Shown: piece after piece, positions 1 through 61,036 of the stretch
Layout of the letters: each line of letters starts with the position of its first letter
Numbering within the stretch: position 1 is the stretch's first letter
DNA from: an uncultured beta proteobacterium
GTDB taxonomy: Bacteria > Pseudomonadota > Gammaproteobacteria > Burkholderiales > Gallionellaceae
Direction of reading: 5' to 3'
NCBI GenBank assembly: GCA_963723415.1
Contig: CAVRQB010000005.1
Location: 117,633 to 181,632, forward strand
DNA length: 64,000 nucleotides
The notes under the pieces: generated by a model
The model's database searches: none
Told to the model about the DNA's origin: nothing
The model's input: only the letters and a program-made list of their open reading frames with translations
Made by a program: the position numbers and the translations under genes

Positions 1-891
1 CATGTCGGCCTGGCTGGAGGCAACAGCGAGAGCGGTGGATTCGCAGATGCCCTGGATCGCGCCGGCGTGCTCCCGCATGCGCTCCAGTTCCGCCAGAAAC
101 ACGCGCAGGGTTTTGGCCCGGGACGGAACATGCGCACCGCAGATCGTTTCAACCGCCTGGCAGTAGGCCAGCCCGTGGGCAAAAGCCGTCGTCGCGGCGA
201 AGCGCTCGGCGAGCAGCAAAACCTCGTCCGTGGTTTTTCCTTCGGCGAGCTTCTCGATGGCCCGCCATTTATAGAACAGGCGCGAGGACGAGCGGATGAC
301 ATCTTCGCCGACGGTTTCGAGCAGAAAGTGCACCGACTCGCTGACGCCGGAGTATTTGGGACCGATCGGCATCACGAACGCGCCCGGTGCGTGAAGAATG
401 CGACGCGGGCGCCAGTTTGCGTCGGGTTTGCGATGGCGCATGGCTGTTTGCGCATCGAAATGCCGGCGCATCGGTTCGACATTTTCCTGCCACACATCAT
501 CGTGCAGGATGAAATCACCGAGGCGCGGATGACCCGCAAAGATCAACCCATACAAATCCTCGGCTTCGCGTTCGTGCCAGTCGGCAGCGTGCACGTATTT
601 CACGATGCTCGGGAAGTTCTTGTCGGCGATAGGCGCGGTGACCCGCACCTGGACCCAGCCGGCATCGCGTTCGCCGTAAAAGGTGTAACGCAACTGCCAT
701 TCGCTCCCGCCCTCCTCGACGATCAGACCGGCAAACCCGAAATTCCATTCGAGGAAAAGGTAGCCGCACAATTCCGGCAATGCAGCACGGGCGCAGACGA
801 TTTCGCCGATGGTGTCCGGGTTGTCGAACCGGCATTGCGCCAGCTCAGGCCATCGTTGATCAATTTCAGTCTTCAGTTCGTCGCGGTTCAT
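1..891 (-). CDS. NuoC/NuoD-fusion, HyfG/HycE-like large subunit of a group-4-hydrogenase-related (Ehr-type) membrane complex. Only the 5' part is present; the C-terminus lies left of the window.
   Basis: This gene is absent from the ORF track because it runs off the left edge. I hand-translated the minus strand from the ATG at 891. It reads MNRDELKTEIDQRWPELAQ...DWHEREAEDLYGLIFAGHPRLGDFILHDD (NuoC-like), then MPIGPKYSGVSESVHFLLETVGEDVIRSSSRLFYKWRAIEKLAEGKT..LAERFAATTAFAHGLAYCQAVE (NuoD/HycE-like). The + ORF 67..1110 is its antisense shadow. Confidence 0.8.
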   Translation of the reverse strand, partial: MNRDELKTEIDQRWPELAQCRFDNPDTIGEIVCARAALPELCGYLFLEWNFGFAGLIVEEGGSEWQLRYTFYGERDAGWVQVRVTAPIADKNFPSIVKYVHAADWHEREAEDLYGLIFAGHPRLGDFILHDDVWQENVEPMRRHFDAQTAMRHRKPDANWRPRRILHAPGAFVMPIGPKYSGVSESVHFLLETVGEDVIRSSSRLFYKWRAIEKLAEGKTTDEVLLLAERFAATTAFAHGLAYCQAVETICGAHVPSRAKTLRVFLAELERMREHAGAIQGICESTALAVASSQADM

Positions 892-901
892 GGACTTTTC
901 C

Positions 902-2395
902 TTATCTCGTCAGAGCGGCTGCGGCCTGCGTCAGCAAATCGTTCAGCGGCCGTGGAATGTAAAAGCCAAGCACGAGCACCGGCACGGCAGCCAGTATCAG
1001 CGCCAGCCGGCAGCTTAACGGCAGGGGAGCATGCCCGGCGGTTTCCGGTACGGAAGGACTTGGTTCAACCGGGCCGTTATTTTCGGGCTCACCAAAAACC
1101 ATCCGGTTGACGTGCAGCATGATTCCGAAAAAGGCGATGACGATGAAAATGGCCAGCAGGCCAGTTGCCATATATTCCTTTTGAATAAAACCGGACCTGA
1201 GAATTGAGAATTCGCTCAGGAATACCGCCATCGGGGGCGCGCCGGCGATGGCAAGTCCGCCGAAGGCGAGCGCGGCACCCGCAACAGGCGACTGGCGGAT
1301 CAGGCCGCGCACGGCGGCAATTTCACGTGTTCCAACCGCCATCAATACGGCCCCGGCCGCGAAGAAACAGAATGACTTTGTCACGCAATGGGTGACGATC
1401 TGTTGCATTGCACCGTAACCTGTCACCGATGAACCCAGGCCGACGGCCGCCAGAATAATCCCCATGTGTTCGACCGTGGAGAACGCGAACATGCGCTTGT
1501 AGTCGCGAACCTGGAGCAGCAAAAACGCGGCGGTGCCGACCGAGATCAGGCCGAGAACCAGCGCCCAGGTGTCGGCGTGGGAATCGGGCGAGGCATGCAT
1601 CACCGGAAACAATCGCAATATGACATAAAGTATCGCCGAGGTCTCGATGCCGGAAAGCAGCGCGCATACCGGAGAGGGCGCCTGGCTGTGCGCGTCCGGC
1701 AGCCAGGTGTGCATCGGGACCAGGCCGACCTTGGTTCCGAGCCCGATCAGGATCAACAGGAACGCCATCTGCAACAGAACCGGCGGCATTGTCGGTGCCG
1801 CGGCAACCAGTCCGGTCCAGGTGTAAGCCGCGTCGCTGCCCGACGCCTGCATTGCGGCAAACAGAACCAGAAAGCCAAACAGCGCCATGCCCGCACCCAT
1901 CAGCGAAAGAACCACATATTTCCAGGCCGCCTCCAGCGCCTCGCGGGTATTCTCAAACGAGACGAGCAAAGCAGAGCACAGTGTCGTCAATTCGACCACG
2001 ATCCATACCAGTGTCGGTTCGGCGAGAACCGGAATGGCCAGCATGGAAAAAACGAACAGGTTGTAATTGGCATAATAGATCCGCAGCTTCCACGGCTTCA
2101 GGTTCTGCTGCGCCATATAACCGACCGAGTAGGTCGCCGCTGTTGTTGCGACAAACGCGATCAGCAGCAAAATCAGCGCGCTCAGGCCGTCGACTGAAAT
2201 CCATTTCAAACTGCCCGCGTCCAGCGCAGCGATGACCGGCTTCCCCGCTGAAGCCTGCAACGCGATTTCCATGGACAAAATCAAAACGGCTGTGCTGGAC
2301 ACAACGGTTACGCCTGCAGCCCAATGCTTTTTGAACGGAATGCAAACGAGCAGGGTCGCAATCAGGGGCAGCAGCAAAATGATGATGACGTTCAT
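902..2395 (-). CDS. NuoM/NuoN-type antiporter-like membrane subunit (HyfF/HyfB-like)
   Basis: This is the internal start MNVIIILLLPLIATLL of track ORF 902..2935. The ATG at 2395 overlaps the upstream stop as ATGA. It is polytopic, with the motif MHTWLPDAHSQAPSPVCALLSG typical of complex I antiporter-like subunits. Confidence 0.8.
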   Translation of the reverse strand: MNVIIILLLPLIATLLVCIPFKKHWAAGVTVVSSTAVLILSMEIALQASAGKPVIAALDAGSLKWISVDGLSALILLLIAFVATTAATYSVGYMAQQNLKPWKLRIYYANYNLFVFSMLAIPVLAEPTLVWIVVELTTLCSALLVSFENTREALEAAWKYVVLSLMGAGMALFGFLVLFAAMQASGSDAAYTWTGLVAAAPTMPPVLLQMAFLLILIGLGTKVGLVPMHTWLPDAHSQAPSPVCALLSGIETSAILYVILRLFPVMHASPDSHADTWALVLGLISVGTAAFLLLQVRDYKRMFAFSTVEHMGIILAAVGLGSSVTGYGAMQQIVTHCVTKSFCFFAAGAVLMAVGTREIAAVRGLIRQSPVAGAALAFGGLAIAGAPPMAVFLSEFSILRSGFIQKEYMATGLLAIFIVIAFFGIMLHVNRMVFGEPENNGPVEPSPSVPETAGHAPLPLSCRLALILAAVPVLVLGFYIPRPLNDLLTQAAAALTR

Positions 2396-3102
2396 TTTGC
2401 CAGCTCCTTCGCCGGCGGCTCGTCGCCCGATTCCTTCAGGCTGGAGAGTTTGCCCACCGCCGTTGTGCCGACATGTTTCTGTACTGCGCGTATCAGCACC
2501 CCGCTGATGAATACGATGATCAGGCCGTCCGTCGCAATCGCCAGCTCGACGAGCAACGGCAGGTTGCGCGAAATCGAAATGCCCGCCAGGAACGCGCCGT
2601 TTTCCATGACCAGCAACGCGATCAGCAACGGCAACGCTTCGCGGCGCACGGTGAGCGTGAAGGCGCCCAGCAACAGGCCGGCGATGCCGATCGGCACATT
2701 GGCGCCGCGAAATTCGGGTGCGACGGCATTCAACAATGGCTGGGCTAGAAAGTAAGCCAGAATCGTCAACCCCAAAGCGATGAGCAATGCGGTCGGAATA
2801 TTCAGCACCTGGCTGATTTCCCGGCGGCTGTAGATTTCTTTCGGGGTGGTCTTGCGCAACAGCCATGGAACAATGATCGGCTTGCTGATCAGATTCACCA
2901 GCGCGACGCCGTAAAGATGTCCGGAATGATGCCAAAGTCCCAGCAACGCCGCGGATGCGGCAAGCATAAGCGATTGCAGGATAAACAGATTCAATACACC
3001 GCGCACCTGCCGCATCGCGACAATGCCGAAAGCCGTCAGCAAAAAAACCCCGACGGCCAGCGCATTCATGTTGTCCAGCAATTGATTGGCCGTATCATTC
3101 AT
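2392..3102 (-). CDS. HyfE-like small membrane subunit (NuoK-related) of a hydrogenase-4-like complex
   Basis: The 236-aa hydrophobic ORF lies between the HyfC-like and HyfF-like genes, and its start ATG is at 3102. Confidence 0.7.
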   Translation of the reverse strand: MNDTANQLLDNMNALAVGVFLLTAFGIVAMRQVRGVLNLFILQSLMLAASAALLGLWHHSGHLYGVALVNLISKPIIVPWLLRKTTPKEIYSRREISQVLNIPTALLIALGLTILAYFLAQPLLNAVAPEFRGANVPIGIAGLLLGAFTLTVRREALPLLIALLVMENGAFLAGISISRNLPLLVELAIATDGLIIVFISGVLIRAVQKHVGTTAVGKLSSLKESGDEPPAKELAK

Positions 3103-3138: not shown

Positions 3139-4089
3139 TCACAGGAAAAATATTTGTGCAATCATGGCCGCCACGGAAGTGATGAACGCGGTGCCCAGGA
3201 ATTCAGAGATCCGAAACAGGCGCAGCTTCGAGAGCGACGATTCGATCACAACCAGCACCAGCAAAAAGCAGAAGATCTTGAACAGCACCAGCGGTACGGC
3301 CAGCAACACCCCGCCGAGGGTATTCCCGATTGCCAACCCCCACGGCGTGACCAGCACATTGAGAAAGATGCACATCAGAACGAACAGTTTCATCTGTCCG
3401 CCCCATTTCATCAGCGCGAATCCGCGACCCGAGTATTCGAGCGATTTTGATTCGTCTATCATCGCCAGCTCGAAATGGCCGGCCGGGTTATCCACCGGAA
3501 TGCGTCCGCCTTCGGCCAGGATCAGCATCAGAAACGCCAATACCAGCAACAGGTGTGACGGCATGAAAAAATTTGCCAGCGGCGTCACCCATTTTTCCTG
3601 CACGATGTAAGGGATCGTTGATCCGGCGACAAACGAGACCGTGAAAAAGACAATCATGAACACCGGTTCAGCCAGAAATCCCACCATGCGCGTCCGGCTG
3701 GCACCCATCGGACCGTAAGGATTCGCCGTGTCTATCGCCGCAAGCGTGGCGAAAAAGCCGCCCAGCGCCAGAATGAATCCGCCGGCAATCATGTCGCCCA
3801 TGAAAGCGAAAAAGAGCGGGTAATTCGTGAGTACCGGAATCAGCAGGGTGACAAAGACCGGCGTGACGAACACGATGTAAGGCGTGAACCGGAAAATCCA
3901 GGAACTGTCTTCAGAGACGATTTCGTCCTTGTGGAACAGTTTCCACAAATCACGATAGGGCTGAAAAATGCTCGGGCCGCGCTTGGACTGCACCATTTCC
4001 TTGAGCCGCGACAGCACGCCGGAAGCCAGCGGCGCGAAAGCCATGACAACCAGAACTTGAACAAGGTTAAATAATATGTGCTCTAGCAT
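3139..4089 (-). CDS. HyfC/HycD-like (NuoH-type) membrane subunit
   Basis: The 316-aa polytopic ORF reads MLEHILFNLVQVLVVMAFAPLASGVLSRLKEMVQSKRGPSIFQPYRDLWKLF, the pattern of formate hydrogenlyase subunit 4 / NuoH. Confidence 0.8.
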   Translation of the reverse strand: MLEHILFNLVQVLVVMAFAPLASGVLSRLKEMVQSKRGPSIFQPYRDLWKLFHKDEIVSEDSSWIFRFTPYIVFVTPVFVTLLIPVLTNYPLFFAFMGDMIAGGFILALGGFFATLAAIDTANPYGPMGASRTRMVGFLAEPVFMIVFFTVSFVAGSTIPYIVQEKWVTPLANFFMPSHLLLVLAFLMLILAEGGRIPVDNPAGHFELAMIDESKSLEYSGRGFALMKWGGQMKLFVLMCIFLNVLVTPWGLAIGNTLGGVLLAVPLVLFKIFCFLLVLVVIESSLSKLRLFRISEFLGTAFITSVAAMIAQIFFL

Positions 4090-4124: not shown

Positions 4125-4490
4125 TCACGGCATCTCCTGCAAGTCGCCTGACAAGCCGGGGGTGTCCTCTTTGTCTGGATTGATCACGCCAAAGCGTGCC
4201 GGGATATAGGCATAGAAGATCCGGATTTTTTCCCGGCGAACCAGTTCCAGAATCTTGTTCGCCTCATCGCCGGTGACGATGAATTCCACCTCGATCGTGA
4301 GCGTTCCGGCCAATTCAAAAAAATGATCTTCGTGAAGATGATGGTGGCGTCCGAACCCGGCCATCGCCCGAAAGGCAGACCCGCCGCGGATTCCGACATG
4401 GCTGGCCTGTTCCAGCAGCCACTCCCAAGCCAGAATCCCATGGCACCGTTGGTTTTCATGAACATAAATCCTGAGAAATGTTCCTTCCAT
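4125..4490 (-). CDS. DUF190 (PII-like) protein, a family commonly linked to crcB
   Basis: This is the internal start MEGTFLRIYVHENQRCHGILAWEWLLEQA of track ORF 4125..4874 (ATG at 4490). It is 121 aa. Confidence 0.75.
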   Translation of the reverse strand: MEGTFLRIYVHENQRCHGILAWEWLLEQASHVGIRGGSAFRAMAGFGRHHHLHEDHFFELAGTLTIEVEFIVTGDEANKILELVRREKIRIFYAYIPARFGVINPDKEDTPGLSGDLQEMP

Positions 4491-4503
4491 CGCGGTCTCC
4501 TTT

Positions 4504-4884
4504 TCAGTAGTTTTGCTGCGCCGGAATGACGCCGCGCACCCCGCCGCGCGGGTTTTGCATATCGCCCTGGTAGCGGGGAATGAGGTGCAGGTGGACGTGC
4601 GGGATCGTTTGGCCGGCAACCTCGCCCACGTTGACGCCGACGTTGTAACCGGCGGGGGCATGTTTGCCGTCGAGGTAATGCTTGGCCTTGTCGAGCAGCG
4701 ACAACAGCGCGATTTTCTCCGCCTCGGTAGTGAGAAAAAAATCGGCGACATGGCGCCTGGGAATGACCAGCAAATGGCCGGGGTTGACCGGGTATTTGTC
4801 CGGTTTGACATAGGCCAGATCGTTCTCGAGCAGGACGCTGTCCGGATTGCAGAACGGACAAATCTGCGTGCCATCGTTCATCAT
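4504..4884 (-). CDS. HIT-family hydrolase
   Basis: The histidine triad HVHLHLIP is present in a 126-aa ORF. Its start overlaps the crcB stop as ATGA. Confidence 0.85.
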   Translation of the reverse strand: MMNDGTQICPFCNPDSVLLENDLAYVKPDKYPVNPGHLLVIPRRHVADFFLTTEAEKIALLSLLDKAKHYLDGKHAPAGYNVGVNVGEVAGQTIPHVHLHLIPRYQGDMQNPRGGVRGVIPAQQNY

Positions 4885-5276
4885 GCAGTTCCTTTTGCCT
4901 TGAACCGGTTGACCGTCAGTATACCCATAGCCGTCATGACCAGCGACCCGCCGAGATGAACGGCGGTGTCAGCCAGGGCCCAGCTGTATTCGCCTCTGGA
5001 AATAAGCGCGACCGCCTCGGCAGAAAAGCTGGAAAAGGTGGTGAGCCCGCCCATGAAACCGGTGATGACAAACAGCCGGGCTTCAGGCGGCAGACTGGAA
5101 TAGCGGGAAAAGAAAGCGATCGCCACGCCGATCAGGTATCCGCCGGTCAGATTGGCTGCCAGCGTACCAAGCGGTAGCGTGGGGAAGATGGGGTTGAGCA
5201 TGATACCGAGCCGTCAGCGCAACAATGCGCCAAAATCTGCGCCGAAGCCCACTGCAACAAAGCCATAGAAGTCCAT
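4881..5276 (-). pseudogene. crcB: crcB (Fluc fluoride channel) with an in-frame TGA at codon 21
   Basis: The track ORF 4881..5201 lacks TM1. Reading the same frame upstream gives ATG(5276) MDFYGFVAVGFGADFGALLR-TGA(5214..5216)-RLGIMLNPIFPTLPLGTLAANLTGGYLIG. The stop sits where E. coli CrcB has Trp (..SVARWLL..). Confidence 0.75.
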
Positions 5277-5322: not shown

Positions 5323-5362
5323 AAAAAAAGCCTACCGCCCCGTTGCCGGGTCATCGGTAGGC
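5323..5362 (-). terminator. Intrinsic terminator that serves as the expression platform of the fluoride riboswitch
   Basis: The minus-strand RNA reads GCCUACCG-AUGACCCGGCAACGGGG-CGGUAGGC followed by U7. The 5' arm re-uses the GCCUAC 3' end of the aptamer. Confidence 0.75.
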
Positions 5363-5422
5363 ATCATCAGCCCGTGCGGGCGATTCGGAACAAAAACTCC
5401 GGGAGGCATGCCATCTCCAGAG
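5355..5422 (-). promoter_or_regulatory. Fluoride riboswitch (crcB motif) aptamer
   Basis: The minus-strand RNA reads GGAGAUGGCAUGCCUCC..(CGGAGUUUUUGUUCCG)..AAUCGCCCGCACGGGCUGAUGAUGCCUAC. This matches the conserved GAUGG / GGCUGAUGAUGCCUAC core and pseudoknot (AUGGCAU with AUGCC) of the crcB motif. It lies directly upstream of crcB. Confidence 0.85.
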
Positions 5423-5425
5423 CGG

Positions 5426-5454
5426 AAGATAACAAGTGCCGCCGGGAATGTAAA
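5426..5454 (-). promoter_or_regulatory. Putative sigma70 promoter for the riboswitch transcript
   Basis: On the minus strand there is TTTACA, a 17-nt spacer, then TATCTT, just upstream of the aptamer. Confidence 0.45.
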
Positions 5455-60290: not shown

Positions 60291-60391
60291 TTAAGAAATT
60301 GCTTATCTGATGGTGTGAATGATGCGAATCATTCCACGTTTCTCCTCCCTGAGCGTGCGTCTTGACTCTATGTTGAGACTTTGCCCCTGGC

Positions 60392-61036
60392 CTACCTCCC
60401 CTTGGCTGGGGGCATTTTTTTGCCTGCCCTGTCTTCAAACCAAGCCGCCATGACCGCTTCGGCCTCGTCCACACCCGTTTTCTTCAAGCTGGAAAACAAT
60501 TGTACTGAACACTGCGGGAAATGCTCGGCAAGGTGCGATTTTACACGAGTCAACGTCAATGTTGCCTGTTGCCTGCTGAGCTTGTCGGACTTGGTGAGCA
60601 GGATATGCACCGGCTTGCCGGTAGGCGCGAACCAGTCCAGCAAGTTTTCGTCCAGTTCGGTCAACGGGTGCCGCGCATCCATGATAACCACCAGGCCTAT
60701 CAGCTCACCGCGCGTTTGAAGATACTCGCTGAGCAATGCTTCCCAATGGCGTTTGCTTTCAGGCGGGACTTTGGCGTAGCCGTAACCGGGCAAATCCACC
60801 AGAAAATTATTGTTGCCCCCCTCATTGTTCCCCAGGGAAAAATAATTCAGGTGCTGGGTGCGCCCCGGCGTCTTGCTGGTGTATGCCAGACGCACATGAT
60901 TCGCCAGCGTATTGATCGCACTCGATTTCCCCGCATTGGAACGCCCGACGAACGCCACCTCCCTGCCGCCATGCTGCGGCAGATCCTTGATGTGGTTTAC
61001 CGTGGTATAGAACGCCGCCTGTGAAAACAGCCCCAT
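60392..61036 (-). CDS. engB: Ribosome-biogenesis GTPase EngB/YihA
   Basis: It contains [26 protein letters not shown] and TKSDK. Confidence 0.85.

Follow-up and report, generated by a model that had tools for sequence, protein, structure and literature searches.

An Ehr-type relative of group-4 [NiFe] hydrogenases, very probably under fluoride riboswitch control, in a Gallionellaceae genome

We analysed a 64,000-nucleotide stretch of DNA (the window) from the 3.27-Mb genome of an uncultured Gallionellaceae bacterium (GenBank assembly GCA_963723415.1). The window spans C5:117633-181632, where C5 is contig CAVRQB010000005.1, and an operon for an energy-converting-hydrogenase-related (Ehr) complex crosses its left edge. 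The operon is predicted to encode a six-subunit membrane complex that is descended from group-4 [NiFe] hydrogenases. Its large subunit, EhrL, is almost certainly of the Ehr type and not a hydrogenase, and the operon is very probably regulated by fluoride. Judged by its genes and its leader, this operon is a distinct, fluoride-riboswitch-controlled variant of the Ehr class and not just a further orphan member of it. The best overall explanation, which we favour with moderate confidence, is that the Ehr complex is a fluoride-switched ion pump countering acidification by hydrogen fluoride (HF). The pump role taken by itself is an even call.

The ehrL open reading frame lies on the minus strand, starts at window position 891 and runs off the left edge at position 1. 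The window (1..891) therefore holds the first 297 codons of the gene, whose full extent is C5:116943-118523 and whose product has 526 aa. Pfam assigns a NuoC-type 30-kDa domain to residues 33-148, followed by the start of a NiFe-hydrogenase large-subunit domain, and we read EhrL as a fused NuoC/NuoD-type subunit like HycE. The closest solved relative found by phmmer is indeed E. coli HycE (PDB 7Z0S_E, E = 3.9e-58). The phmmer alignment pairs HycE 'drvcgicgfah' with EhrL 'erfaattafah' and HycE 'dpcy' with EhrL 'dlsv'. A MAFFT alignment was made of EhrL with E. coli HycE, HyfG and NuoCD, the genome's own NuoD, its second Ehr paralogue and ten orthologues. In both alignments the N-terminal RxCGxCxxxH motif of EhrL reads RFAATTAFAH, against RVCGICGFAH in HycE and HyfG, and the C-terminal DPCxxC motif reads DLSVAENDR, against DPCYSCTDR. 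The MAFFT columns give the replacements of the four NiFe ligands as Cys1 to Ala, Cys2 to Thr, Cys3 to Ser and Cys4 to Glu. They also place the C-terminus of EhrL (...ENDR) at the Arg after which HycE is cleaved, with no maturation tail beyond it. Having lost all four Cys ligands and the maturation tail, EhrL is predicted to be unable to bind a NiFe centre. In addition, the Tyr that contacts the quinone headgroup in NuoD aligns with Ala in EhrL, and the His of the NuoD β1-β2 loop aligns with Ser.

These results bear on a first-pass annotation of the window, made from the letters alone, which had called the large subunit Ehr-type on the strength of its N-terminal motif. The peptide it quoted matches our translation, and its statement that both N-terminal Cys are replaced, by Ala and Thr, reads the same in the translation, in phmmer and in MAFFT. 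It had suggested looking at the C-terminal DPCxxC motif, and there the Cys pair is absent as well (DLSVAE), so that the Ehr reading holds. It had also allowed for a CxxC pair elsewhere in the N-terminal motif region; EhrL has nine Cys, and no CxxC pair occurs across the whole protein. Finally, it had named a C-terminal Cys pair together with hyp maturation genes as a sign of a working NiFe site. The genome has hypD, though on another contig (C3), where it adjoins a gene for a different large subunit of the true NiFe type (PF00374, 782 bits). With both Cys pairs absent, a well-supported place in a Cys-less clade (below) and hyp genes elsewhere, the Ehr-type assignment stands.

The loss of the Cys ligands belongs to a whole family. 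EhrL homologues are abundant and resemble one another to an unusual degree, with the best 120 clusters at 72-87% identity, and those with names come from Gallionella, Verrucomicrobiota, Baltobacteraceae and Sulfopaludibacter. Within that identity range RFAATTAFAH and DLSVAENDR are nearly invariant. A pseudogene or a sequencing error was considered as the source of the missing Cys and ruled out, since more than 100 homologues share the replacement motif almost unchanged. Searching 1.84 billion representatives gave 582 proteins at E <= 1e-30. Among the full-length relatives, the nearest (57-38% identity) all lack the Cys ligands and show the pattern RxSGTSAFAH...GLSVAExDR. Next outward come the classic Ehr types (RISGDS...NLSYAGNDL), then 4-Cys hydrogenases at about 33-36% identity, and then the HycE types. 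A FastTree phylogeny of 116 sequences, in which the supports are those of FastTree and not of bootstrapped maximum likelihood, places EhrL in a clade of 22 rows (support 100) inside a Cys-less clade of 48 rows (support 100). The latter groups (support 90) with a classic-Ehr clade that includes the second paralogue of this genome, while the 4-Cys hydrogenases and NuoD fall outside. That paralogue is part of a second Cys-less complex at C4:260921-268291, which has the classic ehrABCDLS order, a large subunit with RVSGDSTVAY and NLSYSGQDL, and a small subunit with four Cys. It adjoins soxB and a YeeE/YedE-type gene. The genome also keeps a normal nuoD and nuo operon.

The evidence for fluoride control begins in the leader of the operon. 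Rfam cmscan finds a fluoride riboswitch aptamer (crcB motif, RF01734) on the minus strand at 5351..5427. The match, read from 5427..5351, scores 44.2 bits against a gathering score of 34 (E = 5.4e-9), covers the full model (1-64) and is the sole one in the whole 3.27-Mb genome; the scan likewise found no fluoride riboswitch at the second ehr locus on C4. A promoter-like site stands at 5426..5454 on the same strand, with a -35 element TTTACA, a 17-nt spacer and a TG-extended -10 element TATCTT, as a pattern match only from a consensus scan. On the other side of the aptamer, the minus strand carries an intrinsic terminator at 5323..5362, GCCUACCG...CGGUAGGC followed by U7, for which RNAfold gives -21.3 kcal/mol. 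The 5' arm of the terminator overlaps the 3' pseudoknot strand of the aptamer, and GCCUAC is common to both. Laid out in this way, the two elements form a fluoride ON switch of the usual design, with the overlapping terminator as its expression platform. The whole string thus consists of promoter, fluoride riboswitch and terminator, crcB, a HIT gene, a DUF190 gene and ehrB-C-D-L-S-A. Its gene junctions range from an overlap to 36 nt and all of its genes are co-directional. Within the string from the riboswitch to the ehr genes, internal terminators show no excess over shuffled sequence.

Three genes separate the riboswitch from ehrB, all on the minus strand. The first, crcB, encodes a Fluc fluoride channel (4881..5276) and, according to its translation and an alignment of orthologues, has an in-frame TGA at 5214-5216. 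This is codon 21, where orthologues have a conserved Trp (LRW). The genome contains an intact second crcB paralogue at C1:305762-306100, which lacks a riboswitch. The start of the HIT-family hydrolase gene (4504..4884; Pfam PF01230, E = 4.5e-22) overlaps the crcB stop, and a gene for a DUF190 (PII-like) protein follows at 4125..4511 (Pfam PF02641, E = 3.5e-18).

The link between fluoride and this type of complex extends far beyond one genome. Our survey comprised 80 related loci, all from metagenome-assembled genomes and from about a dozen phyla in all. They belong to Verrucomicrobiota, Acidobacteriota, Eremiobacterota, Gamma- and Betaproteobacteria, Alphaproteobacteria and Nitrospirota, with further groups among Actinomycetes, Planctomycetota, Chlamydiota, Desulfobacterota, Binatota and Spirochaetota. 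Bog, palsa, peat or soil appears in the source names of many of these loci. All 80 have the order B-C-D-L-S-A, often followed by a second ehrA. Compared with the proteins of this genome, EhrB has a median identity of 87% and the other subunits 70-77%, and across orthologues identities range over 75-93% for EhrB, 52-80% for EhrL and 52-81% for EhrS. A regular-expression scan for aptamers found 46 and missed the longer Verrucomicrobia-type aptamers. It was replaced by a covariance model of our own, R1, built from 34 of the aptamers found by regular expression, which gave 111 matches. Among the 73 loci assessable for R1, those with at least 400 nt upstream, a same-strand match lies at most 2.3 kb from ehrB in 66, and at most 400 nt from it in 52 of those. 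Retesting at the Rfam gathering threshold confirmed 24 of 25 loci and rescued six of seven apparent negatives as well as locus L043. In the final tally, a same-strand fluoride riboswitch lies upstream in 73 of 74 assessable loci, and the single exception, L079, has a frameshifted operon. More distant relatives, at 49%, 43% and 39% identity (L096-L098), also have RF01734 just upstream of ehrB. Some loci combine the riboswitch and the ehr complex with no crcB within flanks of about 9 kb.

The neighbours of these operons are of the same character. DUF190 genes recur in 22 of the 80 loci, enolase in 16, dynamin-like GTPases in 15 and MutS domain-V proteins in 14, and further recurrent neighbours are CrcB, AAA ATPases and a metallophosphoesterase. 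Among these, crcB, enolase, MutS_V and DUF190 are classic fluoride-regulon genes, and DUF190 frequently adjoins crcB. In one related locus (L031:4905-5660) CrcB and DUF190 are fused in a single reading frame, which suggests that DUF190 proteins act with the fluoride channel. Some related loci (L024, L036, L045 and L097) look like dense fluoride islands: in a stretch of 20 kb they have three to five fluoride riboswitches, which precede separate units for a dynamin-like GTPase, the ehr genes, a metallophosphoesterase and an H+-pyrophosphatase. Dynamin-like GTPases, paired MutS domain-V proteins and small AAA ATPases adjoin ehr operons, for example at L010:17573-19303 and L025:16803-18323.

On the minus strand of C5 the genes run ehrB-ehrC-ehrD-ehrL-ehrS-ehrA, for NuoH-, HyfE- and HyfF-like proteins, the large subunit, the small subunit and a HyfB-like protein, respectively. 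The first-pass annotation had noted that the set begins with the NuoH-like gene and has no NuoL/HyfB-like gene upstream; this is borne out, and the HyfB-like gene sits 3' of the small-subunit gene. It had also proposed checking whether a NuoB/HyfI-like subunit with Fe-S Cys follows. Such a subunit does follow ehrL, though with three of the four Cys of the proximal cluster. All six reading frames are intact and full length compared with orthologues, and none of the proteins reaches a curated NCBIfam cut-off. EhrB (3139..4089, minus strand, 316 aa; Pfam PF00146, E = 2.3e-32) is a membrane anchor of the NuoH/HyfC/HycD type, in which 177 of 316 positions are at least 95% conserved across phyla. 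EhrB keeps the acidic loop between transmembrane helices (TM) 5 and 6 (E..D..HxE..DE..EYSG). In formate hydrogen lyase and complex I, this NuoH-type loop couples the active site to the membrane arm. EhrC (2392..3102, minus strand, 236 aa) is a small HyfE-like membrane subunit that matches NCBIfam NF008556 (hydrogenase 4 membrane subunit) with E = 3.4e-21, below the curated cut-off. EhrD (902..2401, minus strand, 499 aa; Pfam PF00361, E = 2.2e-46) is an antiporter-type subunit like HyfF and NuoN. EhrA (719 aa), a HyfB-like protein identified by a library match, is encoded left of the window on the minus strand (C5:114002-116161). The TM5 Glu, TM7 Lys and TM12 Glu that mark the NuoM/HyfB type are present in both antiporter-like subunits, EhrD and EhrA.

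The small subunit, EhrS (248 aa; C5:116162-116908, minus strand, left of the window), was identified by phmmer and alignment. It is a fusion of a ferredoxin-like N-domain and a NuoB-like domain, and the latter aligns with MbhJ (E = 1e-28) and HycG (E = 1.7e-27). EhrS keeps the hydrogenase-type CxxC (CGAC where NuoB has CC) and the GxC motif, and its PGCPP motif has become PGNPP. The proximal cluster therefore has three of four Cys, with Asn216 in the place of the fourth ligand. The N-domain contains the motif CP...CxxCxxC, which makes one complete [4Fe-4S] site; a ferredoxin fold of this type normally holds two clusters. Cys50, 69, 72 and 75 and Cys119, 122 and 186 are conserved in 69-72 of 72 orthologues. 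At the position of the fourth ligand, the same 72 orthologues have N (54), H (8), C (5), Q (3), D (1) or T (1). The ferredoxin-NuoB fusion recurs as the small subunit in riboswitch-led relatives, and in one related locus (L088:10564-13479) EhrS reads into EhrA without a stop codon. An AlphaFold2 model of EhrS, built with 46 orthologues, had a mean predicted local distance difference test score of 64, too weak for a fold search, gave no geometry of the clusters and was not used.

The relatives at 49%, 43% and 39% identity, which share the gene order and the ferredoxin-NuoB fusion, indicate how this small subunit came about. Those at 39% and 43% have two cluster motifs in the N-domain and keep the Cys of PGCPP. 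The relative at 49% has one N-domain motif and still keeps that Cys, and the crown clade that includes the present gene has one N-domain motif and Asn (PGNPP). N-domain motifs and then the fourth ligand drop out along this series; therefore, the Fe-S chain has been trimmed stepwise while fluoride control was retained. As to the operon itself, a search of 24 same-genus and 16 same-order genomes yielded no orthologue, the best matches there being at most 34% identical, and it was therefore acquired horizontally by this genome. Proteins of Verrucomicrobiota and Acidobacteriota are 75-80% identical to those of this operon, which appears to move between phyla.

A few further features lie near the operon or elsewhere in the window. 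About 0.7 kb downstream of ehrA, left of the window, is a 5'-truncated second enolase gene (C5:112601-113329), which aligns only to residues 170-427 of the enolase from a related locus. It looks like a remnant; the full housekeeping enolase is at C4:1012607-1013812, and extra enolases are typical of fluoride regulons. An open reading frame of 200 aa (C5:113562-114164) overlaps the end of ehrA and combines a zinc-ribbon-like start (CxxC...CxxC) with HEAT repeats (PF13646). It was considered as a member of the system and dropped, as none of the 80 related loci has an equivalent. At the far side of the window, on the plus strand (60333-60421), Rfam matches the Burkholderia anti-hemB small RNA (RF02837; 53.1 bits vs gathering 49.5).

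Comparison with known systems helps to define what is particular about this complex. In the passages that PMC6349859, PMC10284858 and PMC6688271 devote to them, Ehr complexes (ehrABCDLS) are relatives of group-4 hydrogenases that lack NiFe ligands and have no known function, and these three papers trace their description to Coppi 2005 and Marreiros et al. 2013. The present complex agrees with these in its six subunit types, all contiguous here, and in a group-4-related large subunit that lacks the NiFe Cys and is placed in the Cys-less radiation of the tree. Unlike classic Ehr, its genes are ordered B-C-D-L-S-A, with the HyfB-like gene at the end, instead of A-B-C-D-L-S. EhrS has an N-terminal ferredoxin-like domain and a proximal cluster of three Cys and one Asn, and the pocket reads AATT / SVAE instead of the classic SGDS / SYAG. 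Finally, control by a fluoride riboswitch distinguishes it from the classic copy in the same genome, which has none.

With E. coli Hyd-3 (HycBCDEFG, PDB 7Z0S) and Hyd-4 (Hyf), the complex shares the fused NuoC-NuoD-type large subunit, the hydrogenase-type CxxC in the small subunit and the HycD-type acidic loop. It differs from them in having no NiFe ligands, C-terminal extension or protease, no separate 2x[4Fe-4S] HycF or HycB, no FdhF partner, and a replacement of the fourth proximal Cys. With the Q-module of complex I (NuoB/NuoCD/NuoH), it shares homologous subunits, the L-shaped design and a C-terminus in ...DR as in NuoD. Unlike complex I, EhrL lacks the quinone Tyr and His of NuoD, EhrS lacks the tandem CC of NuoB, and the operon has no genes for NuoEFG, NuoI, NuoA or NuoJ. 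MBS offers another parallel, as a hydrogenase-derived complex that has lost NiFe chemistry and has a three-Cys proximal cluster in which one iron has non-Cys coordination (PMC7684303). The Ehr complex is likewise hydrogenase-derived and without NiFe chemistry, with the proximal [4Fe-4S] on three Cys. However, the unused Cys of MBS is the first of the CxxC (in a shortened loop) and is still present, whereas here the Cys of PGCPP is replaced by Asn (His, Gln or Asp in orthologues). MbsL retains two of the four NiFe Cys, EhrL none. MBS also possesses a complete Mrp module and has its ferredoxin as a subunit apart, MbsN, while the ehr operon has no MrpB/C/G-like genes. EhrL and EhrS are less similar to MBS than to HycE or MbhJ. 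The three-Cys cluster and the sulfur-oxidiser context also suggested an MBS-like sulfur reductase, a reading that was rejected, since the missing ligand is not the one that MBS leaves unused and fluoride is the regulator here.

The comparison also concerns a label in the riboswitch literature. According to the parts of that literature that deal with RF01734-linked genes (Weinberg 2010, PMC2864571; Baker 2012 via PMC11139923), Hyf/Hyc-like 'formate hydrogen lyase' operons are among the commonest of them. A 2024 review states that formate hydrogen lyase 'oxidizes formic acid' and reads the association as a metabolic shift to fermentation (PMC11139923). The riboswitch-linked 'formate hydrogen lyase' genes are of the same kind as the ehr genes described here. 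Contrary to the label, these sequences lack a NiFe site as well as formate dehydrogenase and HycB/F, and they form a specific Ehr clade. As far as sequence can tell, the puzzle of the riboswitch-linked 'formate hydrogen lyase' and the puzzle of Ehr function are the same thing, an Ehr clade unable to make hydrogen. A literature search that left aside the originals of Marreiros 2013 and Baker 2012 found no paper tying the riboswitch-linked 'formate hydrogen lyase' to Ehr.

What could such a complex do under fluoride stress? We propose that fluoride binds the aptamer, which would block the terminator and turn the operon on. The Ehr complex would then act as an electrogenic pump for protons (or another cation). 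This role would rest on its two antiporter-like subunits with their Glu and Lys transport residues and on the acidic NuoH-type loop. A short electron wire would lead through one [4Fe-4S] cluster in the N-domain of EhrS to the proximal cluster on three Cys and Asn, and the electron donor would probably be a housekeeping ferredoxin-type carrier. The pump would remove protons brought in by HF and sustain the membrane potential, and would in this way offset acidification and drive F- out via Fluc. Accumulation of HF as a weak acid acidifies the cytoplasm and drains the proton-motive force, and the pump role matches this published logic of fluoride stress (PMC11139923). In addition, Na+/H+ antiporters are the second most common class of riboswitch-linked genes (PMC11139923).

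Several observations weigh against this proposal. The TM8 Lys of antiporter-like subunits aligns with Ser or Asn in EhrD and EhrA, as it does in E. coli HyfF. No redox partner gene recurs near the ehr operon in the neighbour survey of the 80 loci, and the shrinking Fe-S chain could be a sign that redox function is on its way out. The leading crcB of this genome has its in-frame TGA and the nearby enolase is truncated, so part of the fluoride island may be decaying.

The membrane arm might instead work without redox chemistry, as an Mrp-like secondary cation/proton antiporter driven by the proton-motive force or an ion gradient, for which the peripheral arm would be a mere structural plug. Conservation of the Mrp-type antiporter-like subunits and of the coupling loop is compatible with this, as are the stepwise loss of Fe-S ligands along the lineage, the absence of a redox partner encoded nearby and the frequency of Na+/H+ antiporters among fluoride-riboswitch genes (PMC11139923). 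We consider it unlikely, as the seven Fe-S Cys of EhrS are almost always kept in orthologues only 52-81% identical. Moreover, the fourth-ligand position holds polar potential ligands (N, H, Q or D) instead of random residues, and EhrL, at 52-80%, is more conserved than a plug would seem to need.

A more direct dealing with fluoride can also be imagined, in which the former NiFe pocket (Ala/Thr/Ser/Glu) or the non-Cys iron of the proximal cluster senses or binds F-, HF or a metal-fluoride, or the complex uses energy to export fluoride or HF. The near-constant presence of the riboswitch (73/74 loci), the loci with riboswitch and ehr genes and no crcB in the flanks of about 9 kb, the extreme conservation of the NuoH-like subunit (median 87% across phyla) and the nearly invariant RFAATTAFAH pocket motif would all suit such a machine, and MBS provides a precedent for a catalytic three-Cys cluster (PMC7684303). 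However, no anion-pathway signature was identified in the complex. Deeper riboswitch-linked relatives keep four proximal Cys and have a different pocket (RxSGTS...); therefore, neither feature is required for the fluoride link, and we regard this possibility as quite unlikely.

It is decidedly improbable that the complex stands in for a respiratory enzyme under fluoride, as a fluoride-tolerant, complex-I-like oxidoreductase of ferredoxin and quinone (or another acceptor). Its architecture resembles NDH-1 minus the NADH module, and enzyme replacement is known for enolase in the fluoride regulon (PMC11139923), which parallels the extra copies of enolase and pyrophosphatase. Against it stand the missing quinone ligands of NuoD (the Tyr of the DY motif and the β1-β2 loop His), the hydrogenase-type CxxC of EhrS in place of the tandem CC of NuoB, and the normal nuo operon that the genome retains. 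It is very improbable that the island is a decaying, recently acquired relic in this genome and its complex no longer in use. The TGA in crcB, the 5'-truncated enolase fragment just downstream and the transfer implied by the lack of orthologues in 24 same-genus and 16 same-order genomes all fit such a history, but all six ehr frames are intact and full length, and so are the riboswitch, terminator and promoter. A true group-4 hydrogenase or formate hydrogenlyase that evolves H2, the label given by automatic annotation and by the riboswitch literature, is scarcely credible: HycE is the best PDB match, homologues are named 'formate hydrogenlyase subunit 5' or 'Ni,Fe-hydrogenase III large subunit' and hypD is in the genome, yet neither EhrL nor its family has any of the four NiFe Cys, EhrL has no C-terminal processing tail, the operon has no formate dehydrogenase or HycB/HycF genes, and the hyp genes are linked to another hydrogenase.

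Ehr complexes occur in many bacterial and archaeal phyla and have been without an assigned function for about two decades, and 'formate hydrogen lyase' has been an unexplained common gene set of the fluoride riboswitch since 2010-2012. Joining the two gives this orphan family an inducer (fluoride), a testable phenotype (fluoride tolerance, and pH or membrane potential at low pH) and residues to mutate, and it corrects the long-standing 'formate hydrogen lyase' annotation. The series of relatives described here is also a natural series of complex-I relatives that strip their redox cofactors, useful for studying the coupling of electron transfer and ion pumping. If, instead, the reading as a fluoride exporter were true, the complex would be a new class of primary fluoride transporter beside Fluc and CLC-F. 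HF influx should be strongest in acidic habitats, and bog, palsa, peat and soil metagenomes are the source of many host genomes; therefore, the system may matter for fitness in such soils. Ehr complexes of this clade probably help cells survive fluoride rather than make hydrogen.

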